Positions 1,846-26,104 of a stretch of DNA of 26,907 nucleotides are shown one piece after another. Made by a program: the position numbers and the translations under genes. The DNA comes from Candidatus Latescibacterota bacterium (GTDB lineage: Bacteria; Latescibacterota; UBA2968; UBA8231): positions 1 to 26,907 of the forward strand of contig JACPJE010000266.1 in NCBI GenBank assembly GCA_016187725.1, given 5' to 3'. The notes beneath the pieces are model-generated. The model had not been told where the DNA came from, ran no database searches, and saw nothing but the letters and a program-made list of their open reading frames with translations. The stretch's first letter is position 1, and each line of letters begins with the position of its first letter.

Positions 1846-2841
1846 ATGGCCGGCCCGCCACCTGTTTTCCCGGTGGACCGGGCGCCGCGCGACCTGTGGG
1901 CTCTGCCGGGCACGGTGATGGACCGGCAGGAGGAGATGCGGAGGCTGCAGGCGCGATTCCCCTCGGACTTCCAGGGACCCAATGCCCGGTACGGGGCGGG
2001 CCGGCGCTGCCGGGGCAGGGCCAACGACGTAGGTGCGTACACCGACGCCTGGAGCTGCACCTGGCACGTGGCCGAGCGCGGGGTGGTGGGCGAGGTGAAG
2101 GAGCCGCCCCTGGCCGACTGGGGGGGGTTGGCCTCTTACCGGCCGCCCTTTGAATTACTCGACGAGGCCGACTTCAGCCAGGTGGAGGCTTCCTGCGCGG
2201 CCACCGACAAGTTCGTGCGCGCCGGCACCGAGACCAGGCCATTCGAGCGGCTGCAGTTCCTGCGCGGCTCCGAGGCCCTCTTTGCCGACCTGGCGTACGG
2301 CACCCGCCAACTGCGCGAGTTGCTGGCCATGCTCCACGACTTCTACTGTCGGGAGCTGCGCCTGTGGGCTGCCACTGCGGTAGACGGGGTCTCCTTCATG
2401 GACGACTGGGGCACCCAGACCAGTCTGCTCATCGACCCAGAGACCTGGCGCGCCCTCTTCAAGCCCCTCTACCGGGAGTACTGCGAAATCCTGCACGCGG
2501 GGGGGAAGTACGTCTTCTTCCACTCCGACGGCCACATCGAGGCCATCTACCCGGACCTGGTGGAGATCGGGGTGGACGCGCTCAACTCGCAGCTCTTCTG
2601 CATGGACATCGAGAAACTGGGCGAAGAGTTCCGCGGCAAGGTGACCTTCTGGGGGGAGATCGACCGCCAGCAGCTGCTGCCCTTCGGCACCCCTGAGCAG
2701 GTGCGGGAGGGGGTGCGGCGGGTGCGGCGTGCCCTGGACCGGGGCCAGGGCGGGGTGATCGCCGAGTGCGAATGGGGCATCGGCGTGCCCTACGCCAACG
2801 TGGAGGCGGTCTTCGACGAGTGGGAGCAACCCCTCACATGA
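1846..2841 (+). CDS. uroporphyrinogen decarboxylase (URO-D)-like family protein (MtaA/CmuA-like methyltransferase fold), ~331 aa
   Basis: ATG at 1846 (MAGPPPVFPVDRAP...); the alternative ATG is 1918. Family-like motifs: YTDAWSCTWHV, GGKYVFFHSDGHIEAIYPDLVEIGVDALN, KVTFWGEIDRQ. Divergent from the 60..1766 gene. Stop TGA 2839-2841 lies inside the 35-bp repeat. Confidence 0.6.
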   Translation: MAGPPPVFPVDRAPRDLWALPGTVMDRQEEMRRLQARFPSDFQGPNARYGAGRRCRGRANDVGAYTDAWSCTWHVAERGVVGEVKEPPLADWGGLASYRPPFELLDEADFSQVEASCAATDKFVRAGTETRPFERLQFLRGSEALFADLAYGTRQLRELLAMLHDFYCRELRLWAATAVDGVSFMDDWGTQTSLLIDPETWRALFKPLYREYCEILHAGGKYVFFHSDGHIEAIYPDLVEIGVDALNSQLFCMDIEKLGEEFRGKVTFWGEIDRQQLLPFGTPEQVREGVRRVRRALDRGQGGVIAECEWGIGVPYANVEAVFDEWEQPLT

Positions 2842-2866
2842 ACCAGCGCTGTTCCTGGTGCACCGC
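2832..2866. repeat. 35-bp direct repeat, left copy (34/35 identical to 7384-7418)
   Basis: I aligned it base by base: CCTCACATGAACCAGCGCTG[T/C]TCCTGGTGCACCGC, with both copies in the same orientation. It contains the URO-D-like stop codon on the plus strand and encodes ...AVHQEQRWFM* on the minus strand. Confidence 0.85.
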
Positions 2867-2927
2867 GTCCCCGAAGCGGCGCAAGAATTCCATATCGGCC
2901 TTTCGCAGCTCGTGCTGCTTCCGCGAA

Positions 2928-4322
2928 TCATGCAGCTCCCGCAGGCGGTGCAGATTGCGCCGGCGGCTGTTCGACCGGTTTGCCGAGGACCTCCGGCAAC
3001 TTCATCCCCGCCAGGTCGAAGAGGTTTTGCAGCGGCGGCACCGAGCCGACGAGGCTGGAGAGGAAGTTGGCGGTCGAGGACTGGCCATTGCCGGTCTGGC
3101 TGTCCCAGACCATCACCTTGTCGATCTTGAGGTTTTTGATCGCCTCGACCTGGGTGGCGACCAGTTCGGGCAGCTTTTCGACGATCATCAGGGTGGCTGC
3201 CTTGGCCGCATCCCCGCCAGCGGCCTCGACAAGTCGCTGGAATCCCTGGGCCTGCTTGGTGAGGATCTCGTTGATGCCCCGGGCCTGTGCTTCCATGGTG
3301 GCAAAGGTCGCGTCGGCCTGGCCGATGGCCTCGCGGCGGGCCTTTTCGGCTTGTGCGTCGGCCTCGATCTCGATCCTGCGTTTCTGGATTTCGGTCATGA
3401 CCACGATATCGGCGGTCTGGGTAGCGCGCTCGCGTTCGGCGCGGGCCACTTCTGCTGCCTGCTCCGATGCGTAGGCCTCCTGCAGCGCCTTGGCGGACTG
3501 CACCTTCTCGGCCGCCGAGGCCGCGCGCTCGGCCTCGGCCTTCTTCTGGCGCATCTCCGAAGTGGAGTTGGCGATCGTCACCTGCGCCTTGTTCTCGCCC
3601 TCCACGGCCGTGGCGTTGGCCTGCGCGACCTGGATGCGCTGCTGCTGTTTGGCGTTGGCCTCGCCCACCGCACCGTCGCGCTCCTTTTCGGCGACCTGGA
3701 TCCTCGCCTTGTTCACGGCCTCAGCGGCAGCCCGCTTGCCTAGCGCATCGAGGTACCCTGACTCATCCTTGATATCCGTGATATTCACGTTCAGCAGGCG
3801 CAGGCCGATCTTCTCGAGTTCGATCTCCACGTTCTGGGAGATGTTGGCCAGGAATTTGTCGCGGTCGGCGTTGATCTCCTCGATGTCCATGGTCACCACG
3901 ACCTGGCGCAACTGGCCTAGGATGATCTCCTTGGCGATCTCCTCGATTTCCGTGGCGCTGAGACCAAGCAGCCGCTCGGCAGCGGCCATGACCTTCACCG
4001 GGTCGGTCGAAATGCCGATCGTGAAGATGGAGGGGACCGAGACGCGGATATTCTGCCGGCTCAGGGCGTTCTCCAGCGGGATGTTGATCTGGATGGGCCG
4101 CAGGGAAAGAAACCGGTAATCCTGGATGATCGGCCAGATGAACGCGGCGCCGCCGTGGATGCAGCGGCTGGATTTGCCCTGGCCGACGTTGCCGTAGATC
4201 ACCAGGACCTGGTCGGAGGCGCACCTGCGGTAGCGGGAGACAATGACGAGGAAGCTGATGAAGAGCACGAGCACCGCGACGATGACCGGCATCATCACGG
4301 GGAAATCCTTGGCGAATTCCAT
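2928..4322 (-). CDS. flotillin-family (SPFH/band-7) membrane protein, 464 aa
   Basis: I placed the start at ATG 4320-4322 (MEFAKDFPVMMPVIVAVLVLFISFLVIV = N-terminal TM), with AGGAG 7 nt upstream. The SPFH core (IYGNVGQG...IQDYRFLSL) is followed by a long Ala/Glu/Gln-rich coiled-coil typical of flotillins (FloT/YqiK type). The 126 upstream codons in the ORF track are low-complexity. Confidence 0.8.
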   Translation of the reverse strand: MEFAKDFPVMMPVIVAVLVLFISFLVIVSRYRRCASDQVLVIYGNVGQGKSSRCIHGGAAFIWPIIQDYRFLSLRPIQINIPLENALSRQNIRVSVPSIFTIGISTDPVKVMAAAERLLGLSATEIEEIAKEIILGQLRQVVVTMDIEEINADRDKFLANISQNVEIELEKIGLRLLNVNITDIKDESGYLDALGKRAAAEAVNKARIQVAEKERDGAVGEANAKQQQRIQVAQANATAVEGENKAQVTIANSTSEMRQKKAEAERAASAAEKVQSAKALQEAYASEQAAEVARAERERATQTADIVVMTEIQKRRIEIEADAQAEKARREAIGQADATFATMEAQARGINEILTKQAQGFQRLVEAAGGDAAKAATLMIVEKLPELVATQVEAIKNLKIDKVMVWDSQTGNGQSSTANFLSSLVGSVPPLQNLFDLAGMKLPEVLGKPVEQPPAQSAPPAGAA

Positions 4323-4348
4323 ATTGGCGCTCCTTTCAGATGGGATAA

Positions 4349-4951
4349 TTACCTGCTGACCACCACCGATCCATCCGCTGCCAGTTCCGTCACCTTGACC
4401 AGGGTGCCGGTGGGAAGCTCCGGGCCTTCGGTCGCTGCCGGCAGCTCCCGCTGGACGCCTTGAACCGTCAGGATCACCTTGCCCAAACCACTCCGGCGCG
4501 CCGGGATCTTGAGGTAGACCTTCGCCTCCATGCCGACCAGGCTCTGGTCGACTGCCGCGGCCCCGCCCGAGGCCAGTTTTGAAACGCCGTAGAGCATGAA
4601 GGCCACCAGGAACATCAGCGCCGTGCCGGCGACCAGGGAGACCAGCGCGGTGACCAGGATGCCCGTTTGAAACTGGTGGATCATGGCGATGCCGGTCCAC
4701 CCGAACATCATCAGGAAATTGATCAGGTTGCGGATGGTGAACACCGGGAAGTAGGCGTGCTCGCCGGCAACCCCGTCGTGGTGCTGGGCCTCATCGACGC
4801 CTGTGTGGTCGAAGGTCAGGCCCACCAGGGTCAGGATGGTTTGGGCGGCAAACACCAGGGTGGCGGGAACGGCTAGGTACCAGAGCAACTGCTCGAAACC
4901 TGACACGGGCGCCGTCCTTTCGCTTGTGAATCGCGCTGGGAAATGCTCCAT
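4349..4951 (-). CDS. NfeD-like membrane protein (YuaF/YqiJ type, flotillin-associated), ~200 aa
   Basis: Three hydrophobic helices (LLWYLAVPATLVFAAQTILTLVGL, NLINFLMMFGWTGIAMI, GILVTALVSLVAGTALMFLVAF) plus a C-terminal OB-like beta region (KVYLKIPARRSGLGKVILTV...TLVKVTEL). It sits immediately upstream of flotillin in the NfeD-flotillin order. ATG start at 4949-4951; an alternative GTG start at 4993. Confidence 0.6.
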   Translation of the reverse strand: MEHFPARFTSERTAPVSGFEQLLWYLAVPATLVFAAQTILTLVGLTFDHTGVDEAQHHDGVAGEHAYFPVFTIRNLINFLMMFGWTGIAMIHQFQTGILVTALVSLVAGTALMFLVAFMLYGVSKLASGGAAAVDQSLVGMEAKVYLKIPARRSGLGKVILTVQGVQRELPAATEGPELPTGTLVKVTELAADGSVVVSR

Positions 4952-5017
4952 TTGCCGCCAAATATCGTCACCCCCCTCCCCAACTTCAAGCACACCCTGG
5001 GCTCTGCCTCCCCTAGC

Positions 5018-7297
5018 TCAGGGCGCGCTGCGGACGCAGCGGAAACCCACGGTATAGTCAAAGCGCTGTTCGGGGTCGTAGGCCAGACGGTTCGAAACCG
5101 TGTGGATATGGGGATTCTGATCGGCCAGGGAACCGCCGCGCAGGATCTTCAGCCTTTCGCTGCCCGGATCGGCGTTGAAGGGATCCACCAGCGGGGCGCG
5201 GCTATAGTAGTCGCGGGCGTACCAGTCGGCGACCCACTCCCACACATTGCCGGCCAGGTCCATGACCCCGTACGGGCTGGCCCCCTCGGGTTTGGCGCCC
5301 ACCGGCCAGGTGCTGTCCTGGCCGCAGCCGTCCCCCCCATCGTCTATCACGGCCTGGGCGCAACTGGCTTCCTCGTCTCCCCAGGGGTAGCGGCGGCCGT
5401 CTCCACCGGCGGCTTTCTCCCACTCCGCCTCGGTGGGCAGACGCTTGCCTGCCCAGCGGCAGTACTGGTCGGCCTGGGCCCAGCTCAGGGCATTTACCGG
5501 ATGGTCCTCCCGGCCCGGCTGATTCCAGTTGGTGAAGCGGCCTTCAAACTCAAGGCGGTAGGTCTTGGACCCAGAGTGGGGCGGGGTGCATCCACCTCCT
5601 TCTACGCAGGCGCGGTACTGGGCCACGGTCACCTCGACCCGATCCAGGTAGTAAGCGCTCAACTCCGCGGTGTGCGCTGGCCCTTCGTCTCCTTGGCCCT
5701 GGTCGAAACCCATGGAAAAGGGGCCCGCTGGGATGAACACCATCTGGGTGTCCGCAGGTGCCGGGTGGGGCAGGGTATCCCCCTCTGCCTTCATGACCAG
5801 GGCATTGCGCTCCTGCCAGTCCGCCAGGCCAAGGGCCTGGAGTTCGGCTGGCGAGGGCGGCTCAAAGGGCGCCTCCGCGGAAGCGGGCAGGGCATCGCGG
5901 GCGCAGCGGATGCCGATATAGGGGGACCAGCGCAGGGGTCTGAAGCGGTAGCGGTTGGCGGCGCGCAGATCGGGGTTGGGGTCCACGTAATGCCAGGAGT
6001 TGCCCCGCAGGGATTTGTGGAGGGCCGCCTCGGTATTGACCGGGTTGCGCTGCGGACTGCGCGCGTAGTAATCGCGCCCGTACCAATCCGCGGTCCATTC
6101 CCAGACGTTGCCGGCCAGGTCGCGGATGCCGTAGGGGCTGGTGTCGGCTGCACGCGTGGCCACCGGGCCTGGACCGTCGTACCCGCATCCCAGTCCCAGA
6201 CCAGCCTGCATCATCACGGCCCGCTGGCAATTACCGGCCCCGCCCGGGACTTCATCCCCCCAGGGGTAGACCCGGCCCAAGGCCCCGCGGGCGGCCTTTT
6301 CCCATTCGGCCTCGCTGGGCAGGCGCATGCCCGCCCAGCGGCAATAACGCCGCGCGTCGTACCAACTCACGCAGTTGACCGGGTAATTGTCCCCCAGGGC
6401 GGCGCCCCAGGTGCAGGCTTCCCCCTGGGCTGGCTCCGGGCAGGCGCCCTCCTCCGCGCAGGCGCGGTACTGGGCCACGGTCACTTCGCGAGTCTCCAGG
6501 TAATAGGGATCTAGATAGACCTGGTGTTCGGGCTCTTCGTCCTGATATTGAGGGCTGCCCATCGAGAACCAGCCACTGGGAATACCCGCCATCGAGGTCC
6601 ACTGGCCGCTGGGCAGTCTCTGGGTGGTTTGGTCCGGATCGACCAGCAGGATGGGATCGGCATCAGGATCTTGGGGCGCGAAATGGGAGAGGTCGAGGGG
6701 GCGGATGGCAGGGCCGCGCACCTGTACCGTATAGAGGGAAACCTGCTCTGGCCCGGCGCTCTTGTCCGCCGGCAACCCCACGGCTCCGTCCGCCAGGGTC
6801 AACTTGCCGCGGGAGGTGTACTCCCCGGCAGTGAGCAGGAAGAGGTACACCCCGGCAGCCACACCCCGGCGCTGGTCATCGCGGGCATCCCAGCGCAGGA
6901 GGTGTTCCCCGGCGGGCATCTCCCGGTCCACCAGCCGGCGGAGGGGCTGGCCCAGCGCGGTGAAGATCTCCAGGCGGACCCAGGCCGGGGCCGCCATATC
7001 CAGGGGCAAAACGACCACCGGGTTGAAGGGATTGGGGTACGCAGGGCCCAAGTGGGTACGGGCTGGGAGTGGGGGAGGGGCCGTCACGGCAGTGGCTGGT
7101 TCCGGTAGTTCCAGAACATAGGTGCCATCCTCGGCAGTCCGGGTTTCGTAGACCGCGCCATTCTCCTCGCTCAGGTAGTGCACCTGGGCAAAGGGAACCG
7201 GCTGGCCGTCCAGGCGCAACCTCACCTGGCCGCGGACTTGGGCGCCCCAGGCACTGCGGATCAAAAAACACGAAACGAGGAGGAGGTAGCCCCACAT
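5018..7297 (-). CDS. exported multi-domain protein: signal peptide, CarboxypepD_reg-like domain, internal FlgD-Ig/T9SS-type-A-CTD-like domain, and two tandem FGE-sulfatase (SUMF1)-like domains, 759 aa
   Basis: ATG 7295-7297 gives the signal peptide MWGYLLLVSCFLIRSAWG/AQ. The AQVRGQVRLRLDGQPVPFAQVHY region is carboxypeptidase-regulatory-like. AYPNPFNPVVVLPL...VRLEIFTALGQPLRRL...GEHLLRWDARDDQRRGVAAGVYLFLLTAG matches the Por/T9SS C-terminal-domain / FlgD Ig-like pattern, but sits at residues about 100-185. Two SUMF1-like units follow (REVTVAQYRAC...WEWTADWY...RGNSWHY...IGIRCARD and RVEVTVAQYRAC...WEWVADWY...RGGSLAD...GFRCVRSA). Both lack the catalytic Cys pair of true FGE. Confidence 0.7.
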   Translation of the reverse strand: MWGYLLLVSCFLIRSAWGAQVRGQVRLRLDGQPVPFAQVHYLSEENGAVYETRTAEDGTYVLELPEPATAVTAPPPLPARTHLGPAYPNPFNPVVVLPLDMAAPAWVRLEIFTALGQPLRRLVDREMPAGEHLLRWDARDDQRRGVAAGVYLFLLTAGEYTSRGKLTLADGAVGLPADKSAGPEQVSLYTVQVRGPAIRPLDLSHFAPQDPDADPILLVDPDQTTQRLPSGQWTSMAGIPSGWFSMGSPQYQDEEPEHQVYLDPYYLETREVTVAQYRACAEEGACPEPAQGEACTWGAALGDNYPVNCVSWYDARRYCRWAGMRLPSEAEWEKAARGALGRVYPWGDEVPGGAGNCQRAVMMQAGLGLGCGYDGPGPVATRAADTSPYGIRDLAGNVWEWTADWYGRDYYARSPQRNPVNTEAALHKSLRGNSWHYVDPNPDLRAANRYRFRPLRWSPYIGIRCARDALPASAEAPFEPPSPAELQALGLADWQERNALVMKAEGDTLPHPAPADTQMVFIPAGPFSMGFDQGQGDEGPAHTAELSAYYLDRVEVTVAQYRACVEGGGCTPPHSGSKTYRLEFEGRFTNWNQPGREDHPVNALSWAQADQYCRWAGKRLPTEAEWEKAAGGDGRRYPWGDEEASCAQAVIDDGGDGCGQDSTWPVGAKPEGASPYGVMDLAGNVWEWVADWYARDYYSRAPLVDPFNADPGSERLKILRGGSLADQNPHIHTVSNRLAYDPEQRFDYTVGFRCVRSAP

Positions 7298-7383
7298 AAT
7301 CCTTCGGCTTGCGGCGCTGAGATCCGTTGGGGCCCCCAATATAGGCCAATTCAGGCCAGGCAGGTATGGCCGCGCGAAGGGCT

Positions 7384-7418
7384 CCTCACATGAACCAGCG
7401 CTGCTCCTGGTGCACCGC
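7384..7418. repeat. 35-bp direct repeat, right copy
   Basis: 34/35 identical to 2832-2866, same orientation, 4552 bp away. It encodes the last 10 codons plus the stop of the APH-like gene on the minus strand. Confidence 0.85.
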
Positions 7419-8114
7419 CCAGTCCAGGTCGAAGATACCCACCACCTCTCCCTGCCCGGAGAAGAGCAGGTTGGCCGGGGTGTAGTCCCCGTGGATCACC
7501 CACCCCCCCAGGGGAGCATAGCCGGCCCCCGCGTAGTGGCGCTCCTGTGCGTCCACCCGGGTGAGAAAGCGGTCCACCAGGGCCTCTCCCTCAAGATTGG
7601 TCGCCAGGCTCCTGACCGCTATCAGATTCTCGCGCTGCAACTGGGGATCGTCCAGGCGCCCGCTCACCGCGGAGGAGAAACCCAGGGTGGTGTATTGCGC
7701 GATGGGCTCGGTCGGCCCGGCGGGCCGGTACTGCGCTGCGGCCTGGTGGAAGTGGGCCAGGGCCTGGGCGGCGCTGACCAGTTCGCCGCGCTGCTGCGGG
7801 TCGAAGGGCCGGCCAATGACAAAGGGGTAGAGTTCGTACACCCCCTCGGGCCGGCGCAACCAGACCTGACCGGCGGTGGTTTTCAGGGCAGCCACCGTGG
7901 GGATGCCCCGGGCGACCAGGTGGGCGCGCAGTCCGTGGTCAAAGGCCAGGCGCGCCTCGCCCGAGGTGCGGGCGCCCCGGCGGCGCAGGAAGTACTCGCC
8001 CCGGCTGGTGGTGACCTTCCAGGTGCGGCCCGCGGTGCCACCGGCCGGCACCAACTGCAATATCTGGCCCACTTCGTAGGCGGCCAGCACCTGGCTGGTC
8101 TGGGGGTCTGTCAT
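7386..8114 (-). CDS. aminoglycoside/homoserine-kinase-II-type phosphotransferase (APH/ChoK family), 3'-truncated; possible pseudogene
   Basis: ATG 8112-8114. It has a kinase-like N-lobe, the Brenner motif VIHGDYTPANLLF and the DFG-equivalent IFDLDWA. The ORF stops 12 residues later (AVHQEQRWFM*) inside the 35-bp repeat, so about 90-100 residues of the C-lobe are missing. Confidence 0.6.
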   Translation of the reverse strand: MTDPQTSQVLAAYEVGQILQLVPAGGTAGRTWKVTTSRGEYFLRRRGARTSGEARLAFDHGLRAHLVARGIPTVAALKTTAGQVWLRRPEGVYELYPFVIGRPFDPQQRGELVSAAQALAHFHQAAAQYRPAGPTEPIAQYTTLGFSSAVSGRLDDPQLQRENLIAVRSLATNLEGEALVDRFLTRVDAQERHYAGAGYAPLGGWVIHGDYTPANLLFSGQGEVVGIFDLDWAVHQEQRWFM

Positions 8115-8308: not shown

Positions 8309-9463
8309 TCAGCGCTCCACCTTCACCCCCCAGGGTCCCTCGACGTAGGGGAAGCGTTGCTCCACATCCTCTGCCAGTTCGACGCCCAGGCCAGGGGCGG
8401 CGGGCAGCTCCAGGTGTCCGTCCTTGATGAGAGGCGGGTTGCGCAGCATCTCCCACTGCAGCGGTCCCTGGAACATGTTCAGCTCCAGCACCCGCGGGAA
8501 AGGCAGGGCTGCCACCAGGTGGGCGTTGGCCATGGTCATCAGCCCGTTGTGCCAGTTGTGCGGGCACATGGGCACGCCGAACTCCCAGGCGCGGCGAGCG
8601 ATGCGCATGCCTTCGGTCAGCCCGCACCAGCCGCCGTCGGCCTGGACGATGGCGTAGGCCTTCTTGGCCAGGTACGGCTCGAACTGCCCGACCGTGGTGT
8701 ACTGCTCCCCGCCGGTGATCGGCAGCTTCACCGCGGCGTTGAGGCGGGCGTAGCCATCGACGTCGGTCTGGGGGATGGGCTCCTCGAACCAGGTCCAGCC
8801 CATCTCGTCGAGGGCCCGGGCGATCTCCAGGGCCTGGGCCTCGCCGAAGCGCTGGTTGCCGTCCAGCATCAGCTCCATCCGCCCGCCCACCGCCTCGGTC
8901 ACCTGGCGCAGCAGGGCGATAAAGCGGGGCACGGTGACCCCGGCCCACTCCCAGTGGGTGCCGATGCGCATCTTGAAGGCGGTGTACCCGGCGGCGGCGT
9001 ACCGGGTGGCTTCGTCGACCACGGACTCGGGCCGGCACTCCCAGTCGTAGTTGACCCCGCCCGAGGCGTAGAGCCGCACCCGCCGGAGGGGCTGCTGCCC
9101 GGGGGCGGCCAGCAGTTCGGCCACTGGGCGATTGGCGATGCGGCCACGCAGGTCCCACAGGGCAGCGTCGAGGCCGGCCACTGCCGTGTCCACCGGCGCG
9201 TTGAGACCCACCGGGCGCGGGGCTAGGTCCGGTTCGCGCGGATCGCGGCCCAGCAGGTTCTGCTTCAACCGCTCCACCTCGGTGCGGATGCGGGGTGGGT
9301 CGCCGTACGCGCAGGCTTCGCCGATGCCCCGCACTCCTCCATCGGTGTCGATGACCACCACCGCGGCGTCGGCCTTGGGCACCAGAAAGGTGGCAGTGCG
9401 CCACTGGCGTTCGGGCTCGTGGGGGCGGGACAGGCACAGGGTGCGGATGCCGGTGATCTTCAT
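8309..9463 (-). CDS. enolase-superfamily protein (mandelate racemase/muconate lactonizing enzyme family, sugar-acid dehydratase-like), 384 aa
   Basis: MKITGIRT... N-terminus typical of the galactonate/rhamnonate dehydratase subgroup. Metal-ligand pattern LMLDGNQRF / FEEPIP / VQADGGWCG. ATG 9461-9463 with GGAG 9 nt upstream. Stop TGA 8309-8311. Confidence 0.8.
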   Translation of the reverse strand: MKITGIRTLCLSRPHEPERQWRTATFLVPKADAAVVVIDTDGGVRGIGEACAYGDPPRIRTEVERLKQNLLGRDPREPDLAPRPVGLNAPVDTAVAGLDAALWDLRGRIANRPVAELLAAPGQQPLRRVRLYASGGVNYDWECRPESVVDEATRYAAAGYTAFKMRIGTHWEWAGVTVPRFIALLRQVTEAVGGRMELMLDGNQRFGEAQALEIARALDEMGWTWFEEPIPQTDVDGYARLNAAVKLPITGGEQYTTVGQFEPYLAKKAYAIVQADGGWCGLTEGMRIARRAWEFGVPMCPHNWHNGLMTMANAHLVAALPFPRVLELNMFQGPLQWEMLRNPPLIKDGHLELPAAPGLGVELAEDVEQRFPYVEGPWGVKVER

Positions 9464-9581: not shown

Positions 9582-10322
9582 ATGAGACAGTGGGCAGCCT
9601 TGCACGAGGACGTGGTTTTCGGCAGGAGCGGGGGCCGGATCATCTGGCAGCCGCGCATCCTGTGCTGGTACACCGACAAGCAGTTCGTCGGCGAGCCGCT
9701 GCCGGCCCCGTACACCGGCCTGCCCATGCCCGAGATCTACCGCAAGCTGGGTTGCTCGGACCGGCTCTACAACTGGTACAACCCCTGTTTCCGCCGCGTC
9801 GAAGACCCAGGCGTGCAGGTGCAACAGGAGCCACTCAACGAGACCGACACCAGGATCACCATCCACACCCCGGCGGGGGCCCAGGTGGCGGTGCATCGCC
9901 GCACGCCCAATAGCTGGCACCACATCAGCCTCAAACGCGAGGTGGAGAGCGAGGCGGAGTTGAAGGTGGCCGCCTGGCGCGAGGAACGCGCCACCTGGGA
10001 ATGGGATCAACAGGCCTTTGACCGGGCCCAGCGCGAGGTGGGGGATCTGGGGGCGCCGGCCATCTTCATGCCGCGCATGAACGTGCAGAGCCTGTACATC
10101 GAGAAGATGGGGGTGGAGGGCGGGGTCTTCGCCATGCACGACTGGCCCGATACCACCGCGGTTTTCTTCGCTGCCCTGGAGGCCTGCCACGACCGGCTCA
10201 TCGAACTCTTCGCCCCCAAGCTGGTGCTGGGCATCTCGGACGAGATTTCTTCCACGGGGGATATTGAGCGGGTGCGGCTTGTGGGGGATATTGTGGAGGA
10301 GTACAATGCGCGGTGCAAATAG
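9582..10322 (+). CDS. hypothetical protein, 246 aa
   Basis: ATG 9582 with AGGAGG 5 nt upstream. GC3-biased with a diverse composition (W/Y/F/H-rich). I could not assign a family. Divergent from the enolase-family gene. Confidence 0.5.
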   Translation: MRQWAALHEDVVFGRSGGRIIWQPRILCWYTDKQFVGEPLPAPYTGLPMPEIYRKLGCSDRLYNWYNPCFRRVEDPGVQVQQEPLNETDTRITIHTPAGAQVAVHRRTPNSWHHISLKREVESEAELKVAAWREERATWEWDQQAFDRAQREVGDLGAPAIFMPRMNVQSLYIEKMGVEGGVFAMHDWPDTTAVFFAALEACHDRLIELFAPKLVLGISDEISSTGDIERVRLVGDIVEEYNARCK

Positions 10323-10788: not shown

Positions 10789-10842
10789 GGAGGCCGGGGG
10801 GATTTATATTATTGCAGGATGCTCTGCAGAGAGGAGCAGGCG

Positions 10843-12858
10843 ATGGTCGTGCCATCTGCGCATACTACCTGGCGAGCACGGGGTCTCATGGCCGCCCTGT
10901 GGCTGTCGCTGGCCACTGCCGCCCAGGCCCAGATCTCCTTCTGGCAACTGGGCGGCGGTGGCCTGTCTTGGGCAGAGAGCGACACGACGCGGGTGATGGT
11001 GGCCGTCGACGAGCAGGCCAACACCATCCAGCCGGTCTATTTCTCCGAGGGCGACAACATGATGTTGGCCGTGTCGGGTTGGTCAGAACTGAAGATCCCC
11101 CGCGAGCTTGGCTACATCGACGGCCACCAGCCGCGCCTGTGGCTCCAGGACGGCACCAGCGCCTACTTCACCTCCTACTATGATAGCCCCCTGTACGTGG
11201 ATGGCGACCGCAGCACCTACAACACCGCGCGCCTGGGCTGGTGGACCATAGACCTGGGCGTGCCGGTGCCGGCCAGGCGCTTCGGTTTTCTCACCCCTAC
11301 CGAGGGCTTCCGCTCGGACGGGGTGCCCTTGAACCAAGATCCGGTGCCGGCCTTCGAGGTGTCTGTTTCCGAGGAGAGCGATCCAGCCCTGGAGCTGAGG
11401 GACTACCACCGCCTCAACACCCTGATCGCCGATGTGCAGGAAAACTTCGCCGAGGAGGTGGAGATCGAATTTCCCCCCCAGTACGTGCGCTTCATCCGCT
11501 ATAACCGCAACGCCTCGGTGCTGGACGAGCAGACCATCAGCAATACGGTCCGCGGCACCATCGCCGAATTCGTGCTCCACGGCCAGGGCGTACCCAAGCG
11601 GGCCATCTACTTGACCCAGATCATCGACCTGGGAGCGGAGGTGAACTTCGGCCGCATCTTCTGGGCGGTCAGCACCTGGCGCATGGTAGCCGGGGCGCCC
11701 GTGGAGACGCCAGGGGCCCGGGCCTGGGTGGAGGTCGAGGCGCGCAGCGGCCGGGACAGCGATCCCAATGTGTACCACGAGTACACGGACTCGGGCAAGG
11801 AACTGTTTGTATCGCGCCAGCGCTATGAGCACGAATTGCGCCAGCCCGAGACCGAGGGGGTGCTTCAGCTCGACCGGCGCCCTGGAATACAGGCCTCGAT
11901 CGCCTATGATCTGGAGAACTGGAGTTTCTGGTCCATCCCCCTCACCCAGTCGGGTAGCCTCCTCGAGCTGCGCAATGGCGCGTACCTGCAATTGCAGATC
12001 ACCCTGCAGAGCCGGGCCTTCGGCGATTTCGTGCGCCTGGACTCTGTGTGGATTGAGCAGTCGCCGCCCCTGGCCGACCAGGTGCTAGGCGAGGTGGCCC
12101 TGCTGGACGAGCCTCGGCCAGCGCTCGGCTTCACCCAGGTCGAGCTGGGCCGGCGCGCGGCTTTTGCCTATGACCTCAGAGCCATCTTCGCCTCGGCGGC
12201 CCAGGGCGGCTTTGACGCGGTGCGCCTGCGCGCCGGCAGCCGGCCGCGCTTTTTGCGCCTGGAGATGGGTGAACCCCTGGTCCGGGTAGAGCCGGCCGGA
12301 GTCGCCGAAGAGGAGGAGGGGCTGGTCGTCCTGCTGCCGGAGAAAGTGACCGGCCAGCGCAATGTGCCCGCGCGCGTGGTCTTTGACACCGAGGTGTTTC
12401 TGCACGCCACGACCTTCGAAGGCGAGGTCTCCGATTCAAAAGTGGAAAGCCTGCCCCAGCCAATCGAACCCGGGGATGCGGGCGACTATATTTCTACCGG
12501 CAGCCTGCGCGTGCTGGGCGGCCGCGGCCGGACGCCCGGTTTCATCGAGGATTTAGAGCTCTCCGGCGCTGTGGTGACACCCAACGGCGATGGGATCAAC
12601 GACCGGCTGACCATCCGCTACAATCTGTTCCTGTTGCCCGAACCCATTCCGGTGGAGTTGAATGTGCACGACCTGCAGGGCCGGCGCCGTCTGCACCTCG
12701 AGGTGGGCGCGCAGGAGGCCGGGCCCCAAGAGGTGTTCTGGGACGGCCGGGACAACGAGGGGAGGCTGCTGGAACCGGGCATCTACCTGGTGGACATTCG
12801 CCTGCGCTCCGAGCTGAAAGACCTCCGCCAGGTGCGCCCGGTGGGTCTGGCCTACTAG
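10843..12858 (+). CDS. secreted discoidin (F5/8 type C)-domain protein with a C-terminal T9SS-type-B-like (CHU_C) sorting domain, 671 aa
   Basis: ATG 10843 with GAGGAG 6 nt upstream. Signal peptide MVVPSAHTTWRARGLMAALWLSLATAAQA/Q. Discoidin-like signatures (VDGDRSTYNTARLGWWTIDLG...; PQYVRFIRYNR). C-terminus SGAVVTPNGDGINDRLTIRYNL...LHLEVGAQEAGPQEVFWDGRDNEGRLLEPGIYLVDIRL matches the FTPNGDGxNDxF gliding-motility / T9SS type B C-terminal-domain motif. Confidence 0.75.
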   Translation: MVVPSAHTTWRARGLMAALWLSLATAAQAQISFWQLGGGGLSWAESDTTRVMVAVDEQANTIQPVYFSEGDNMMLAVSGWSELKIPRELGYIDGHQPRLWLQDGTSAYFTSYYDSPLYVDGDRSTYNTARLGWWTIDLGVPVPARRFGFLTPTEGFRSDGVPLNQDPVPAFEVSVSEESDPALELRDYHRLNTLIADVQENFAEEVEIEFPPQYVRFIRYNRNASVLDEQTISNTVRGTIAEFVLHGQGVPKRAIYLTQIIDLGAEVNFGRIFWAVSTWRMVAGAPVETPGARAWVEVEARSGRDSDPNVYHEYTDSGKELFVSRQRYEHELRQPETEGVLQLDRRPGIQASIAYDLENWSFWSIPLTQSGSLLELRNGAYLQLQITLQSRAFGDFVRLDSVWIEQSPPLADQVLGEVALLDEPRPALGFTQVELGRRAAFAYDLRAIFASAAQGGFDAVRLRAGSRPRFLRLEMGEPLVRVEPAGVAEEEEGLVVLLPEKVTGQRNVPARVVFDTEVFLHATTFEGEVSDSKVESLPQPIEPGDAGDYISTGSLRVLGGRGRTPGFIEDLELSGAVVTPNGDGINDRLTIRYNLFLLPEPIPVELNVHDLQGRRRLHLEVGAQEAGPQEVFWDGRDNEGRLLEPGIYLVDIRLRSELKDLRQVRPVGLAY

Positions 12859-12868
12859 AGGTGTGCTC

Positions 12869-15226
12869 ATGATCTCCTCGGTCAGATGGCTGCGCTGGGC
12901 CTTTGGGCTGGGCTCCCTGATTCTGGAGGCAGGGTCAGGCCGGGCCGAGGTGTTCACCATCGACAGCGCCCCGGAGTGGCAGACCTGGCAGTTTCCCCAG
13001 GGCCTGGTGCAGATCAGCCAGGCCGGGCACCTGGAGCTGACCCGGTTCCGCAGGGGGATAGATCCGGTCCGCGACGCGGAGCAGTTCACCCACCCCACGG
13101 TAACCCGCGGCCAGGTGTCCGGGGGGATCTGGCGGGCGGCCTCCAATCCGCAGGCGGCCGCCCGGATTATCGATGGAGACCGGCGGACCTCCTGGAAGCC
13201 CGAGGCGGCCGACCCCCTGGCTGCCTGGGAGGTCGAGATCGACCTGGGCCGCGCGGTGCTGGTCCGCCAGCTCCGCCTGATCTTTCCCGACGAAGAGGGG
13301 GCGCACCCCTTCAGGCAGTTCAGCGTGTACGTGGCCACCGGGGCCACGATCACCATCGCGGACGACCTCTTCTCTTTCGACACGGTCTATCAGACGACCC
13401 TGCCCAACACTGAGCGGGAGATCGCCATCGACCTGTCCGGGCGCAAGGACACTACCAGGGTGCTGGATCCGGGCCTGGACCCGGAAGACGAGTCCGGCTT
13501 TCGCGTCGTCCAGTACATCCGCTTTGGCGCCGATGCCAAAAGCGAGGATGCGGCGCTGGCCGAAATCGAGGTGGTGGCCGTGGGCGACAATATAGGCCTG
13601 GGCGCCCTGGAAAGGGGTGGCACCTTCAGCGCCGGGCTGGTGACGCGTGATCCGCAGTTCATGATCGACGGCAACATGAACACCCACGCCAACAAGTTCA
13701 CGGTATTCCGCGTCAGCGGCGACTGGAAGGCAGATGGCCTGTGGTGGGAACTGGACCTGGGCGCCCTGTTCTGGCTCGACGAAGTCTTCCTCTACTTCAA
13801 TGACCCCGGCGAAGGGGCCTCGGGATCGACGACGCGCAATGCCGGCACGGGCTTTGCCTTCCGCTTCTCCGAAGGGAGGCGCACTACCTCGGGCGAGGTG
13901 GACTACACCCCGCTGGTCGCCGAAGGAGACGAGCAAGCCCCCTTCTACATCGAAGACCGGCACTTTCGCTACCTCTTCGCCCCGCGCCAGGTCCGCTACC
14001 TGTTGTGGTACGGCTTTGTGACCCCGCAGGAATGGCACGCGCGCGTCCCGGAACTCATGCTCTTCTCTCCGGGATACCCGGCCCAGGTGGTGCTGCGCTC
14101 CGGCTTCATCGACCTGGGGCGGATCGCAGGGGACAACCGGCCCAAGGCTATCAGGAGCCTTTCCTGGGAAGTGGAACTGCCGCCCAGGACGCGCATGCAG
14201 TTGCGCTCGCGCTCGGGCAGCTCGTTCAAGGAGGAGTACACCTTTCACGACAAGAAGGGGGAGATCGTCACCGAGGCCAGGTGGAACAGCCTGCCCAAGG
14301 CCGTCAAGGGGCCGGTGGACACGGTGCTGGTGGCAGGTGGCGACTGGAGTCCCTGGAGCAATTTCTACCAGCTCTCAGGCGAAGCGTTCCAGTCGGAGAA
14401 CCCCAGGCGCTTCCTCCAGCTGGAGGCCATCCTGTCCACCGATGATCCTGAGGTGGCGCCGGTGCTGCGCTCGCTCGCCATCGAATACGAGGACGCGCTG
14501 GTGCGCCAGGCCCGTGGCCGCCTAGAGCCGCGCCAGGCCAGGCCCAATGAAGCGACGCGCTTTACCTATACCTTGTGGCCCAGCGTCGGGGAAGACGACA
14601 GCGGCTTCGACGCCCTGCGCCTGGTGGCGCCGGAAGGGCTGATAGACGCAGGGAGGATCGAGGTGCGGAGCGGCGAGGAGAGGATCGCCCCGGCAGAGGT
14701 GAGCGTGAGTCAGGACTCGCTGTGGGTGTTCCTGCCCCAGCAGCACAGAGCAGACTCGCTGGAGTTGAGTTTCACCGCCCGCCTGCTGCGCAATGCCACG
14801 GTCTTCGCCCTGGACCTGGGCAATGCGGCTCGCCCGGGGCTGTGGCAGTCGGTGGAAGCGGTCGAGCGGGGGGCCAATGTGGTTTTCCTGCCCGAACTGA
14901 CGGGCAGCCAGAGACTGATCCGCGACCTGGAGATCATCCCGCCGGCCTTCACTCCCAACGGCGATGGGATCAACGACCAGCTGGAGATCCGCTTCGCGGT
15001 GCTCAAGGTGGAGAAGGCCCGGCCCCGGGTGCGCATTTTCGATCTGGCCGGCCGGCCCGTGGCAGAACTGACAGAGGCAGGGGGTGGCCTCGCCAAGGTC
15101 TACAGATGGTCGGGGATTGCTGCGGATGGCCATAGGGTGGCGCCGGGGGTGTACCTGTGCCATATAGACCTGGGCGCTGAGGTGGGGAAGGAGGCAGTGG
15201 CGCGCTCCATCGCGGTGGTGTACTGA
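12869..15226 (+). CDS. secreted protein with two discoidin-like domains and a C-terminal T9SS-type-B-like (CHU_C) sorting domain, 785 aa
   Basis: ATG 12869 with AGGTG 5 nt upstream, 10 nt after the previous stop. Signal peptide MISSVRWLRWAFGLGSLILEAGSGRA/EV. Discoidin signatures IDGDRRTSWKP...WEVEIDLG...VVQYIRF and MIDGNMNTHANKF...WWELDLG...QVRYLLW. C-terminus FTPNGDGINDQLEIRFAV...VRIFDLAGRPV...YRWSGIAADGHRVAPGVYLCHIDLG. Paralogous C-terminal domain with the previous gene. Confidence 0.75.
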   Translation: MISSVRWLRWAFGLGSLILEAGSGRAEVFTIDSAPEWQTWQFPQGLVQISQAGHLELTRFRRGIDPVRDAEQFTHPTVTRGQVSGGIWRAASNPQAAARIIDGDRRTSWKPEAADPLAAWEVEIDLGRAVLVRQLRLIFPDEEGAHPFRQFSVYVATGATITIADDLFSFDTVYQTTLPNTEREIAIDLSGRKDTTRVLDPGLDPEDESGFRVVQYIRFGADAKSEDAALAEIEVVAVGDNIGLGALERGGTFSAGLVTRDPQFMIDGNMNTHANKFTVFRVSGDWKADGLWWELDLGALFWLDEVFLYFNDPGEGASGSTTRNAGTGFAFRFSEGRRTTSGEVDYTPLVAEGDEQAPFYIEDRHFRYLFAPRQVRYLLWYGFVTPQEWHARVPELMLFSPGYPAQVVLRSGFIDLGRIAGDNRPKAIRSLSWEVELPPRTRMQLRSRSGSSFKEEYTFHDKKGEIVTEARWNSLPKAVKGPVDTVLVAGGDWSPWSNFYQLSGEAFQSENPRRFLQLEAILSTDDPEVAPVLRSLAIEYEDALVRQARGRLEPRQARPNEATRFTYTLWPSVGEDDSGFDALRLVAPEGLIDAGRIEVRSGEERIAPAEVSVSQDSLWVFLPQQHRADSLELSFTARLLRNATVFALDLGNAARPGLWQSVEAVERGANVVFLPELTGSQRLIRDLEIIPPAFTPNGDGINDQLEIRFAVLKVEKARPRVRIFDLAGRPVAELTEAGGGLAKVYRWSGIAADGHRVAPGVYLCHIDLGAEVGKEAVARSIAVVY

Positions 15227-18200
15227 ATGCAACGCTCTCCTTGTGCGGTGCTCCTGGCGCTGATGCTAGCCGGCGCCACAGGGGCACAACAACTGGAGAT
15301 TCCCAATCCCTCTTTTGAGGAGGGGCAGGGGCAGCCGGCGGGCTGGACCCTGGCGGGGAACGGCGAGTGGGCGCAGGGCGGGGCCGAGGGCGAACGGGCC
15401 CTGCTGGTGAGCGGCGATGGGGAGAGCACCAGTTTCTGGCGCTCGGCGCTGCTGTCCCTGAAGCCGGGCGGCCTTTACCTGCTGCGCTTCAGGGCCCGCG
15501 GTCTGGAAGGGGGCGGCGGCACGCCCACCAGCGGGCCGGTCTTCTGCAACCGCGATCTGGGCGATCTGGGCAGTGAGTGGGGGGAGCAGACCTCGGTGTT
15601 CAAGGTGCCCGATTCCCTGGAGGCGGAGCGGGCCTGGCTGCGCTTCGGCCAGTGGCACCTCAAGGGGGCGGTGGCCTTCGACGCGGTGGAGCTGGCCGAG
15701 GCCCAGCCCGTCTACACCCGCAGGGGAGATCTGATGTTGGGCGAGGGCGAGGAAATCGACAGCCGGCGCTACACCTTCGCGGCTCCTTTTCACAGCTCCT
15801 CGCGCAACCACAGCCGGCCCCTGGCCGCCCAGCGCTGCGACTTCAACACCAACCGCTGGGTCTTCGGGGCCGGCAGCTACGCGATCTACCGCCACGAGCT
15901 GGCTGGCCGTCTTCAGCGCGACGCCCAGGTGGCGGTGACCATCGGGTATTACCAGGCCGGGGAACTGGTGGTGGAGGCCAGCGCCGAGGGCGGGCAATGG
16001 CGGGAGTTGGGCACCCTGGGCGAGGCGGGCAGCCGCAGCTTCGCCCTGCCCGGCGAGCTGCTGCCGGCACCAGTGATTTGGGTCCGGCTGCGCGCCCAGG
16101 CCAGGCAGGCGCTGGGCGCCAATTCGGACCCGGGCTCCTTCCAGATCCACAACTATACTTACCGTTCGGTCGTGGAGGGCGAGCCGCTGCGCGTGCAGGG
16201 GCACACCCAGTTTGTGGTGATCCAGGGCATTGATCCCCGGTTGCAGGTGCAGGTCGCAGGTCTGGGCGAGCAGGTGCCCGGCGGCGACAACCGCATCGCC
16301 GTGCAGATCGAAAACACCAGCGGGGGCACCCTTTCCCTGGTGCAGGGGGTGCAGGTGAAGGGGGAAGGAGTTGTGGCACAGATGGACACTGCGACCATCG
16401 CGCTGCCGCCTGGACCCAGCTCCCGGTCTCTTCCCTATGCTCTTCCCGGGTCTGGCAGCTTCTGGGTGGAGTACTCCCTGGGCGAGTTCCGCGCCGGGAC
16501 CTGGGTGTACCTGCCGCTGCTCTACGCCACAACCTACGGGGAGCAGTTGCCCGGGTCGAGGGCAGATGTGGGTCTGTGGTGGGCTTCCTCCGGGTGGAAG
16601 GTGAGCCGGCAGCGGCCCCTGCCCCAGGCCAAAGGCCAGACCCTGCGCATCCGCGCTGCCCGCGACGAACGCGAGGCTGCCCAGCTGGTGGTGCGGCCCG
16701 ACCGCAAGCTGCGCGGCCTGTGGGCAAGGCCTCAGGACCTGAGCGGGCCGGAGGAGGCCCGCATCGGGGCCGGGCAGATCGAGATCCTGCGCGTGGGGTA
16801 TGTGCCGGTGGCCCAGCCCTCGGATTACAGCGGCGCAGCGGCGCTCTGGCCTGATCCCCTGCCCCCGCTGAGCGAGCCCATCGACATTCCCGCCGGCACT
16901 GACCAGCCCCTGTGGGTGCGGGTCCACGTACCGCCCGGGACGCCGGCCGGGCTGTACACCGGCGCCATCGCCCTGGAGGCTGAAGGGTTCAGCGCCCTGG
17001 TGCCCCTGCAGGTGGAGGTCTACGATTTTGCGCTGCCACGGCGCATGAGCTGCACCACGGCCTTTGGCTTCTCGCCCGAGGAGGTCTTCCGCTATCAAGC
17101 GCTCTCCGACCCGCAGCAGCAGCGGGCGGTGCTGGACCAGTATCTGGAGAATTTCAGCGCCCACCGGGTCTCGCCCTACGACCCGGCCCCCCTCGATCAC
17201 TTCGAGGTGAAATGGTCGCCGAACCTGGAGCCCAGCTTCTCGTGGCAGGCCTGGGATCAGGCCATGAGCCGGGCCATCGACACCCTGGGTTTCAACTCCT
17301 TCCGCCTGCCGGTGCAGGGCCTGGGCAGCGGCACGTACCACGACCGTACCGAACCGAGCCTGCAGGGCTTTGGGGAAAACACCCCCCAGTACCAGCAGGG
17401 CCTGCGCGCGTACCTGGGCGAACTGGAGCGCCACCTGGAGGAAAAGGGCTGGCTGGACGAGGCGTACGTGTACTGGTTCGACGAGCCCGACCCCAAGGAC
17501 TATGCCTTCGTGATGAAGGGTTTCGGCAAGCTCAAGGAATACGCCCCCCGCATCCGGCGCATGCTCACCGAACAGGTGGAGCCCGAATTAGTGGGCGGGC
17601 CCGACATCTGGTGCCTGCTCACCCCGGAGTGCGATTCCACCGCCATGACCGGGCGCCAGCAGGCCGGCGACGCCTTCTGGTGGTACGTATGCACGGTGCC
17701 CAAGGCGCCCTATGCCGGGCTCTTCATCGACCACCCGGCGACGGAAATGCGGGTCTGGCTGTGGCAGACCTGGCAGCGCAACCTGCAGGGGGTGCTGGTC
17801 TGGCAGACCAATTACTGGACCAGCGAGGCGGCGTACCCGGAGCACCCGCAGAATCCCTACGCCGATCCGATGAGCTGGGTGAGCGGGTACAGCACCGAGC
17901 GGGGTAACAAGCTGCCCTGGGGCAACGGGGACGGCCGCTTTCTGTATCCCCCCGAGGCGGCGGCCAGCGGCCAGGCGCATGAACCGGTGCTGACTGGGCC
18001 GGTGGACAGTATGCGTTGGGAAATGCTGCGCGACGGGATCGAGGACTACGAGTATTTCGCCATCCTCAAGAAGCTGTTGGCCGAGCAGGGGGCGGCCCTG
18101 GAGGCGGAGGAGCGCCGCACTTACGAGGCCCTCCTGCAGGTGCCCGAGGTGGTGAGCGCGGAGCTGACCCGCTTCACCGGCGACCCGGCACCCCTCGAAG

Positions 18201-18247
18201 CGCACCGCCACGAATTGGCCAGGGCCATCGAGGCGCTGGGCCGGTAA
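15227..18247 (+). CDS. secreted glycoside-hydrolase-like protein with an N-terminal CBM4/9-like module and DUF4091-like (GH123-like?) C-terminal region, 1006 aa
   Basis: ATG 15227 directly abuts the upstream TGA (TGAATG). Signal peptide MQRSPCAVLLALMLAGATGAQQ. NPSFEEGQGQPAGWTLAGNG is a CBM4/9-type opening. GLYTGAIALEAEGFSALVPLQVEVYDFALP, then WGNGDGRFLYPP and MRWEMLRDGIEDYEYFAIL, are hallmarks I associate with DUF4091-containing glycosidases. Confidence 0.6.
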   Translation: MQRSPCAVLLALMLAGATGAQQLEIPNPSFEEGQGQPAGWTLAGNGEWAQGGAEGERALLVSGDGESTSFWRSALLSLKPGGLYLLRFRARGLEGGGGTPTSGPVFCNRDLGDLGSEWGEQTSVFKVPDSLEAERAWLRFGQWHLKGAVAFDAVELAEAQPVYTRRGDLMLGEGEEIDSRRYTFAAPFHSSSRNHSRPLAAQRCDFNTNRWVFGAGSYAIYRHELAGRLQRDAQVAVTIGYYQAGELVVEASAEGGQWRELGTLGEAGSRSFALPGELLPAPVIWVRLRAQARQALGANSDPGSFQIHNYTYRSVVEGEPLRVQGHTQFVVIQGIDPRLQVQVAGLGEQVPGGDNRIAVQIENTSGGTLSLVQGVQVKGEGVVAQMDTATIALPPGPSSRSLPYALPGSGSFWVEYSLGEFRAGTWVYLPLLYATTYGEQLPGSRADVGLWWASSGWKVSRQRPLPQAKGQTLRIRAARDEREAAQLVVRPDRKLRGLWARPQDLSGPEEARIGAGQIEILRVGYVPVAQPSDYSGAAALWPDPLPPLSEPIDIPAGTDQPLWVRVHVPPGTPAGLYTGAIALEAEGFSALVPLQVEVYDFALPRRMSCTTAFGFSPEEVFRYQALSDPQQQRAVLDQYLENFSAHRVSPYDPAPLDHFEVKWSPNLEPSFSWQAWDQAMSRAIDTLGFNSFRLPVQGLGSGTYHDRTEPSLQGFGENTPQYQQGLRAYLGELERHLEEKGWLDEAYVYWFDEPDPKDYAFVMKGFGKLKEYAPRIRRMLTEQVEPELVGGPDIWCLLTPECDSTAMTGRQQAGDAFWWYVCTVPKAPYAGLFIDHPATEMRVWLWQTWQRNLQGVLVWQTNYWTSEAAYPEHPQNPYADPMSWVSGYSTERGNKLPWGNGDGRFLYPPEAAASGQAHEPVLTGPVDSMRWEMLRDGIEDYEYFAILKKLLAEQGAALEAEERRTYEALLQVPEVVSAELTRFTGDPAPLEAHRHELARAIEALGR

Positions 18248-23271: not shown

Positions 23272-23355
23272 ATGACGGAAACGGAGCAATACCTGTTCGA
23301 TGTACACGGCTATCTGGTGATCAAAGGCGCCCTGTCTGCACAGAAGGCCGCATGA
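23272..23355 (+). CDS. 27-codon ORF (MTETEQYLFDVHGYLVIKGALSAQKAA) with strong SD, overlapping the start of the next gene; leader peptide or remnant of a PhyH-like N-terminus
   Basis: AGGAGAGGAG at 23257-23266, 5 nt before ATG 23272. TGA 23353-23355 overlaps ATG 23352 (ATGA). The peptide resembles the TxEQxxxFxxxGYLVIxGxLS opening of phytanoyl-CoA-dioxygenase-family proteins. Confidence 0.35.
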   Translation: MTETEQYLFDVHGYLVIKGALSAQKAA

Positions 23356-24650: not shown

Positions 24651-24653
24651 TCC

Positions 24654-25985: not shown

Positions 25986-26035
25986 CGGCAGAACTCAGGG
26001 CGAGTTGGAGGGAGGAGCGGAGATTCGTTATTATC

Positions 26036-26050: not shown

Positions 26051-26104
26051 TTCACGATAAGCAAAGGAGCCCGGGGTGTCAAAACAGATGAAAGGATTTC
26101 TGCC

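Follow-up and report, generated by a model that had tools for sequence, protein, structure and literature searches.

Several processes are known to leave copies of the 3′ end of a gene on either side of a block of other genes. In genomic islands, the attachment sites attL and attR may come from the 3′ end of the target gene. When a fragment that bears the end of a gene integrates by a single crossover (Campbell-type integration), that gene end is duplicated, as in the lacZ-end duplications of 109–950 bp in Escherichia coli (PMC3240628). Orphaned 3′ ends, such as the orphan toxin ends of Rhs and contact-dependent inhibition (CDI) loci and those in the effector-immunity arrays of the T6SS (type VI secretion system) of Vibrio cholerae, have been proposed to stem from homology-facilitated illegitimate recombination that displaced them (PMC5361080). 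Lastly, microhomology-mediated deletion, which is illegitimate and RecA-independent, can fuse two genes in frame or give rise to pseudogenes. The present study analyzes a pair of 35-bp direct repeats in DNA of an uncultured Candidatus Latescibacterota bacterium (positions 1–26,907 of contig JACPJE010000266.1, assembly GCA_016187725.1; this whole stretch is the window). The repeats bracket a segment of 4.5 kb with genes for a SUMF1-domain protein, a membrane protein described as NfeD-like and a flotillin, and have been suspected of being attachment sites. Judged from comparison of the sequences with related loci (L-numbers below), both are remnants of a single aldo-keto reductase (AKR) gene, each preserving its 3′ terminus, and not functional sites. 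The AKR gene is otherwise lost in this genome.

The locus resembles each of the described systems in part. As with orphaned 3′ ends, DNA is anchored in a conserved gene and the resident 3′ end is displaced downstream as a relic in direct orientation, with no dedicated recombinase; the window differs in having one relic and not an array, in carrying metabolic and membrane genes and not toxin and immunity genes, and in the later deletion of nearly all of the anchoring gene, and the likeness in mechanism is one that we infer (PMC5361080). Campbell-type integration likewise places an insert between direct repeats of a gene end and is reversible between the repeats, which would regenerate the junction of AKR and URO-D ends seen in the relative L009, but here just 35 bp of repeat survives, the AKR sequence on the left amounts to about 60 nt, and the donor circle is hypothetical (PMC3240628). 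Genomic islands share the direct repeats of a gene 3′ end around a multi-gene segment. In the window, however, an integrase is lacking, most of the “cargo” is native, the target gene has been destroyed and not restored, and the two copies of the repeat resemble each other no more closely than orthologs do. Microhomology-mediated deletion with in-frame fusion is seen in textbook form, without any difference, at the right junction, where about 1.13 kb was lost at a 7-nucleotide (nt) microhomology found in both parent genes. The features concerned are, in order along the window:

1900–2841, plus strand: intact gene of the URO-D family, MtaA/CmuA-like (Pfam URO-D, NCBIfam MtaA/CmuA-like)
2832–2866, either strand: left 35-bp repeat; read on the minus strand, the last 10 codons of the AKR relic, its stop codon and 2 nt
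2834–2893, minus strand: AKR 3′ relic of 19 codons and a stop, MEFLRRFGDAVHQEQRWFM, found by tblastn with the C-terminus of the L003 AKR
2894–2938, minus strand: about 45 nt of filler that separate the AKR relic from the end of flotillin homology, supplying the present flotillin stop codon (2930–2928)
2928–4322, minus strand: flotillin (Band 7/SPFH, FloT-like) of 464 aa (Pfam Band_7, NCBIfam FloT)
4349–4906, minus strand: membrane protein of 185 aa, “NfeD-like” by position only; the gene call agrees with Logan contigs
4907–5010, minus strand: region upstream of the NfeD-like/flotillin module with promoter-like TTGAAG-17-GATATT (at about 5000), aligning with the region upstream of NfeD in L016
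5018–7297, minus strand: SUMF1/FGE-sulfatase protein of 759 aa with two FGE domains (Pfam)
7298–7383, minus strand: AKR–SUMF1 intergenic spacer with a conserved TATATTGGGG element, recognized by homology to relatives
7384–7418, either strand: right 35-bp repeat; AKR codons 261–270, the stop codon and 2 nt
7386–8114, minus strand: in-frame fusion APH(1–235)::AKR(263–270), an open reading frame (ORF) of 242 aa, recognized from homolog lengths and Pfam APH
8309–9463, minus strand: enolase-superfamily MR/MLE gene (Pfam), the conserved neighbor upstream of APH

The 35-mer CCTCACATGAACCAGCGCTG[T/C]TCCTGGTGCACCGC occurs at 2832–2866 and 7384–7418, with 34/35 identity and a start-to-start spacing of 4552. 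The original prediction had given this identity and spacing and held that the repeat was not due to chance, which is borne out: the window holds just these two copies when up to 3 mismatches are allowed, there were 0 copies in 100 shuffles, and no further copies of the 20-mer core were found in the window. The longest exact runs common to both copies are 20 and 14 nt. Either copy translates on the minus strand as AVHQEQRWFM and a stop. In relatives, AKR (270–272 aa, Pfam Aldo_ket_red) directly follows APH (loci L003–L006, L007/L008, L009/L010, L019/L033, L021, L022, and L032–L036) and has the C-terminus EEMEFMR(K/N/R)FGDAVH(R/Q)EQ(R/H)WFM before its stop codon. The last 35 nt of these genes match the window repeat at 33–34/35 and are single copy in every relative. 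As the two repeats are no more alike than orthologs, their identity does not imply a recombinase core, and it does not imply that the duplication was very recent. By tblastn, the L003 AKR matched the window in two places, 2917–2837 (27 aa, E = 6e-8) and 7418–7389 (10 aa). On the left, 19 of the 27 aa are clearly homologous, in frame to the stop codon, and the right relic matches the AKR C-terminus in 10/10 codons with 1 substitution. There was no other AKR fragment in the window by tblastn, nor the missing C-terminus of APH. A second AKR end downstream of the inserted genes was absent from L003 and L007 at up to 3 mismatches, and a 23-mer from the AKR end had only two exact matches in JGI metagenomes, both of them ordinary AKR 3′ ends. 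The conserved order in relatives is MR/MLE, APH, AKR and SUMF1 in one direction with URO-D convergent to them (L003, L032–L034), and the closest relative, L037, retains MR, APH and AKR. In the window, the native spacer and SUMF1 come after the right relic, and the end of URO-D after the left one, as in L009.

It had also been noticed that each copy supplies the stop codon of a flanking gene. This is so for the TGA of the URO-D-like gene at 2839–2841 (plus strand) and that of the APH-like gene at 7388–7386 (minus strand). A third stop was missed, since the left copy also ends the minus-strand frame of the relic at 2836–2834.

Other roles for the 35-mer were considered and rejected. Two short palindromes seen within it, CAGCGCTG and GGTGCACC, are accounted for by codons. 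Compared by eye with the arms of E. coli dif, the 35-mer had 6/11 and 4/11 matches. Neither copy holds a terminator-like site, and a strict sigma-70 match that would suggest a promoter is likewise absent. A dispersed intergenic repeat of the REP or MITE kind does not fit two window copies and JGI 23-mer matches that both fall on AKR 3′ ends.

At the left junction, AKR homology runs 25 nt (9 codons) past the repeat, and the relic has 83–90% nucleotide identity (counted by eye) with the AKR 3′ ends of L003, L009, and L033. The last three codons and stop of URO-D (PLT and stop) are the antisense of this relic. The window URO-D, whose longest ORF starts at 1753, is 93% identical to that of L003, which is convergent to SUMF1, and 90% to that of L011. 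In L009, L010, and L021, a full AKR gene is followed directly by GGGGTTGCTCCCACTCGTCGAAGACCGC(T)TCCAC; this stretch matches the window after the left relic at 33/34 and is the antisense of the end of URO-D, VEAVFDEWEQPLT and stop. The remainder of URO-D is deleted in these three loci and a C-terminal remnant of an SSF transporter comes next. The left copy can thus be identified, from these alignments, as the end of an AKR relic overlapping the URO-D stop codon, at a junction like that of L009 and L021. The original prediction had proposed a search for an empty site in which URO-D-like and APH-like genes are adjacent with one repeat copy. L009 and L021 do have a single copy that the URO-D 3′ end follows immediately, but URO-D was found next to APH in no relative. 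This single-copy arrangement of L009, L010, and L021, in which URO-D is truncated, may be either a pre-insertion or a post-deletion state. A URO-D remnant also lies after the SUMF1 position in L032–L034 and L011, and an intact URO-D in L003; behind URO-D in L003 and L011, a possible decayed AKR trace amounted to 6–9 nt of ambiguous similarity and was judged insufficient. No source for the filler of about 45 nt turned up, either within the window or among the loci fetched.

The L011 locus has a comparable architecture of its own. An SSF-family transporter gene (815 aa) lies there between a decayed URO-D 3′ relic and an intact URO-D gene (5851–5943 and 2140–3153). The relic is directly behind SUMF1 and the two URO-D sequences have the same orientation.

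At the right junction, similarity to APH stops at GIFDLDWAV, after which homologs go on for about 110 residues, starting with PGARCRDVADGLYFF, whereas the window has HQEQRWFM and a stop (compared by eye). Among the best 120 of 169 matches, 119/120 APH homologs are 300–403 aa long, typically about 347–350 aa; the matches listed come from Latescibacteria and allies with 51–89% identity and about 97% query coverage. Pfam APH aligns to the window ORF over profile positions 6–197 of 239 only. Because APH homology stops inside the gene, the right repeat lies at a breakpoint within APH and not at a natural gene end. The APH-like gene had been thought simply to use the stop codon of the repeat; it is instead cut at codon 235 of 347 and joined to AKR codon 263, in frame for both genes. 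The APH of relatives reads GAC TGG GCG GTG CCG GGG and AKR reads GGC GAC GCG GTG CAC CGG GAG, and the window reads GAC TGG GCG GTG CAC CAG GAG. The 7-nt microhomology GCGGTGC is present in APH codons 234–236 (TGGGCGGTGCCGGG) and AKR codons 261–263 (GACGCGGTGCACC) of L019/L033, and occurs once in the window at 7418–7412, which is the outer 7 nt of the right repeat on the minus strand. The deletion, about 1.13 kb as computed from L003 coordinates, took the last third of APH and nearly all of AKR. The right copy is accordingly recognizable, at the level of sequence, as the product of a microhomology deletion between APH and AKR, and the fusion ORF is probably a pseudogene. The window APH is nearest to that of L009 (87.6% nucleotide identity), being nearest over the first ~600 nt, and sliding-window identity against four relatives gave no clear recombination breakpoint within it. 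Upstream, the MR/MLE gene serves as a synteny anchor; it shares 90% identity with its counterpart at this position in L003 and 88% with that in L033, and is present also in L037.

Most of what lies between the repeats belongs to the locus. SUMF1 is 85% identical to that of L003 and 81% to that of L033, in the same place downstream of AKR, and the spacer at 7298–7383 is homologous to L003 11866–11956 and L033 11866–11917. Since both are homologous and in place in relatives, the right relic, spacer, and SUMF1 are native and contiguous; the intact or remnant URO-D beside SUMF1 in L003, L032–L034, and L011 makes SUMF1 and URO-D ancestral neighbors. An exact-protein look-up of the 759-aa SUMF1 returned no record. 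SUMF1 has internal repeats (5164–5653 and 6025–6505; three direct families of 66–117 nt, 70–76%, about 850–880 nt apart), which reflect duplication of the FGE-sulfatase domain. In L003 (11957–15401; also L004, L006, and L020), the SUMF1 stop codon has been lost by a small indel and the gene is called as an 882-aa ORF running antisense through URO-D, with the intact URO-D at 14346–15401 (minus strand) missing from the called genes.

The sole DNA foreign to the locus is the NfeD-like/flotillin module of about 2.1 kb together with the ~45-nt filler, between SUMF1 and the left relic. Homology to the SUMF1 3′ flank of L003 ends about 8 nt past the SUMF1 stop codon, which places the junction at about 5010, and NfeD-like/flotillin was found at this locus in no relative compared. 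In L016/L017, the two genes lie between rpsU/cold-shock (csp) genes and an ECF-sigma-like gene. The window flotillin is 92% identical to that of L016, which ends GSGTTK and is followed by a terminator; homology ends near 2938, and the ~8 native last codons and the terminator are lost in the window. The 185-aa protein is 79% identical to the L016 partner gene. The L016 counterpart of the promoter-like element is TTGACA-17-TAATAT, and a strict sigma-70 scan of 2600–7600 found no promoter. The composition of the module is only weakly foreign (GC 0.64 versus 0.68–0.70; GC at third codon positions 0.85–0.86 versus 0.88–0.91) and was not used as evidence. The original prediction had the genes of the segment right (SUMF1 at 7297–5018, the 185-aa ORF at 4906–4349, and flotillin at 4322–2928), apart from the NfeD label, for which there was no Pfam or NCBIfam match. 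Its claim that the repeats enclose a single operon unit does not hold, as SUMF1, spacer, and URO-D are syntenic in relatives and NfeD-like/flotillin occurs alone in L016/L017; the whole 4.5-kb unit was present in no relative locus compared.

Two other accounts of the repeats can be weighed against these findings. If the 35-mers were attL and attR of a non-autonomous SUMF1-NfeD-flotillin cassette mobilized by a recombinase encoded elsewhere, as had been suggested, then direct repeats bracketing the segment, short palindromes within the 35-mer and a single-copy configuration in L009/L021 would all be expected. Yet the repeat codes for part of a conserved gene and is equally conserved (33–34/35) in genomes with a single copy, and its identity is not confined to a core: on the left it continues as AKR coding sequence for 25 nt past the repeat, and on the right its outer 7 nt (7412–7418) are explained by the microhomology of APH and AKR. 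SUMF1 and spacer are native, the components occur separately, and the JGI matches are ordinary AKR ends. No integrase or transposase had been seen in the sequence, and this agrees with Pfam scans of 19 window ORFs, in which there were no recombinase, transposase, or Xer-type domains; the ORFs scanned encode glycoside hydrolases, secreted proteins of the type IX secretion system (T9SS) kind, DUF1015 and similar. The ORFs outside the scan are the frame pairs at ~23310–26060, except 23352–24650 (plus strand) and 24654–25985 (minus strand), and a 446-aa ORF at 25520–26860 (minus strand), with none between the repeats. Attachment sites are therefore very improbable. The other possibility raised, a contig mis-join in which the two junctions are not on one molecule, might be entertained because the window is a short-read contig of a metagenome-assembled genome (MAG) and because one Logan contig, L018, begins right at the junction of SUMF1 and NfeD (5010), hinting at a branch in the graph, i.e. 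strain heterogeneity. However, independent Logan assemblies of six runs (SRR12113390, -401, -418, -422, -428, and -432) reproduce all junctions, with contigs tiling 8196–2731 at 99.9–100%. The right junction is crossed by L001 (8196–5442) and L002 (8196–5505), the SUMF1-to-NfeD junction by L038–L041 (from 5437, 5386, 5344, and 5284, respectively, to 3775), and the passage from flotillin through the relic to URO-D by L018 (5010–2731), with L042 covering 4988–3602. Exact stretches of 20 and 14 nt are moreover too short to collapse k = 31 graphs, and a mis-join can be regarded as excluded for practical purposes. What does survive is the suggestion of a scar of an older event or a duplication junction, since the repeats do mark boundaries of rearrangement. 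As a separate observation, the start of L018 at 5010 suggests co-occurring strains that differ on one side of the SUMF1/NfeD junction.

How the arrangement arose is less certain. In the window, one AKR end adjoins the SUMF1 spacer, the state of L003 and L033, and another adjoins URO-D, the state of L009, and so the AKR 3′ end has been duplicated around 4.5 kb. Taken as a whole, we lean toward an explanation in which AKR relics were produced by homology-assisted insertion followed by microhomology deletion. The incoming segment would have consisted of an AKR 3′ end, spacer, SUMF1, NfeD-like gene, and flotillin, and the recipient would have been the AKR 3′ end of an L009-type chromosome in which AKR and URO-D converge. 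Entry may have been by single-crossover integration of a circularized fragment or by homology-facilitated illegitimate recombination, either of which would leave the insert flanked by duplicated AKR ends. The deletion between APH and AKR would later have trimmed the right repeat to 35 bp. That the window APH is nearest to the APH of L009 is consistent with a shared backbone. The number and order of these events are our inference, as the data cannot order them. Several points weigh against this insertion. No genome with a full AKR, SUMF1, NfeD-like/flotillin, and relic was found. SUMF1, MR, and URO-D have diverged from L003/L033 about as for vertical descent, so that the segment with SUMF1 bears no sign of import. 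The junction of the L009 type may be a pop-out between two AKR ends and not the pre-insertion state, or it may have arisen twice at a microhomology of TCATGTGAGG with the end of URO-D; a different junction of AKR with a URO-D remnant in L022/L007 indicates that loss of SUMF1 is recurrent. The insertion gives no account of the 45-nt filler. With the right-hand flank, the deletion took away the means of telling how long the duplicated AKR segment first was, and one mismatch in 35 nt is too little to tell donor and recipient alleles apart.

An alternative explanation, of comparable weight though it must be held tentatively, could be that an ancestor of the L003 type underwent a complex intragenomic rearrangement in one step, through template switching or microhomology-mediated break-induced replication. 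A single repair or replication event at the SUMF1/URO-D boundary would have copied, one after another, NfeD-like/flotillin, ~45 nt of filler, and ~60 nt of the nearby AKR 3′ end and rejoined the end of URO-D; the deletion between APH and AKR would be separate or linked, and L009 would come from recombination between the two AKR ends. This would account for the vertically inherited appearance of SUMF1, MR, and URO-D and for the retention of MR, APH, and AKR in L037. The module is 92% and 79% identical to genes at another locus of a close relative and has no strong compositional anomaly, which fits an intragenomic source, and the filler and short homologies at the junctions would also be expected. 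The window APH is sister to that of L009, as a pop-out in L009 predicts. On the other hand, several template jumps would be required, the intermediate was not observed, and a source for the filler is absent from the 27-kb window and all loci compared. To our knowledge, events of the template-switch type are poorly documented in bacteria. Beyond either the one-step rearrangement or the insertion that we prefer, one might speculate, although we consider it rather unlikely, that the convergent ends of AKR and URO-D are a recombinase-free “landing pad” in this Latescibacteria/Handelsmanbacteria lineage, at which modules (SUMF1, NfeD-like/flotillin, SSF transporter) are gained and lost time and again by homology-assisted recombination, with gene 3′ ends being duplicated and then permitting clean pop-out. 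The window with two AKR ends, L011 with a URO-D end on either side of an SSF gene, and L009 with a single-copy junction would fit such a site.

These results carry a caution that a non-random direct repeat around a block of genes, overlapping two stop codons, can mimic attachment sites and really be relics of one decayed gene. For annotation, the “phosphotransferase” is a truncated fusion, AKR has been lost, as probably has APH, and the last codons of URO-D are antisense to a pseudogene relic. Rearrangements are frequent in this neighborhood, a hot spot for them in an uncultured lineage, but no new mechanism or system is implied, the locus being an ordinary scar left by gene decay and by recombination that was illegitimate or homology-assisted. 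The 35-bp repeats are at most a substrate for a rare future 4.5-kb deletion.

There were further irregularities on the same contig and in the relatives. At 9582–10322, the window has a 246-aa ORF that is a truncated homolog of a 370-aa protein of L003 and of the N-terminus of a 1253-aa GH123 protein of L033, while the GH123 body is at 15227–18247. Between them are two T9SS-type genes, 10819–12858 (FlgD_ig) and 12863–15226 (CHU_C), which are absent there in L003 and L033, indicating a second insertion or rearrangement. These adjacent genes share a 43-nt repeat (12577–12619 and 14951–14993, 88%) encoding the TPNGDGINDxL C-terminal sorting motif. The public records behind P0001, P0361, and L021 assign one and the same conserved gene cluster variously to Candidatus Latescibacteria, to Candidatus Handelsmanbacteria, and to a “Gemmatimonas phototrophica” MAG, and at least the last label looks like an error of binning or taxonomy. 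Finally, 268-aa calls of “Epimerase (weak)” in L021 (6036–6839) and L022 (7345–8148), as well as in L007 and L009, are probably spurious, as they run antisense to the SSF remnant, which is a C-terminal part (~240 aa) of the L003 SSF1078 transporter with 64–65% identity.

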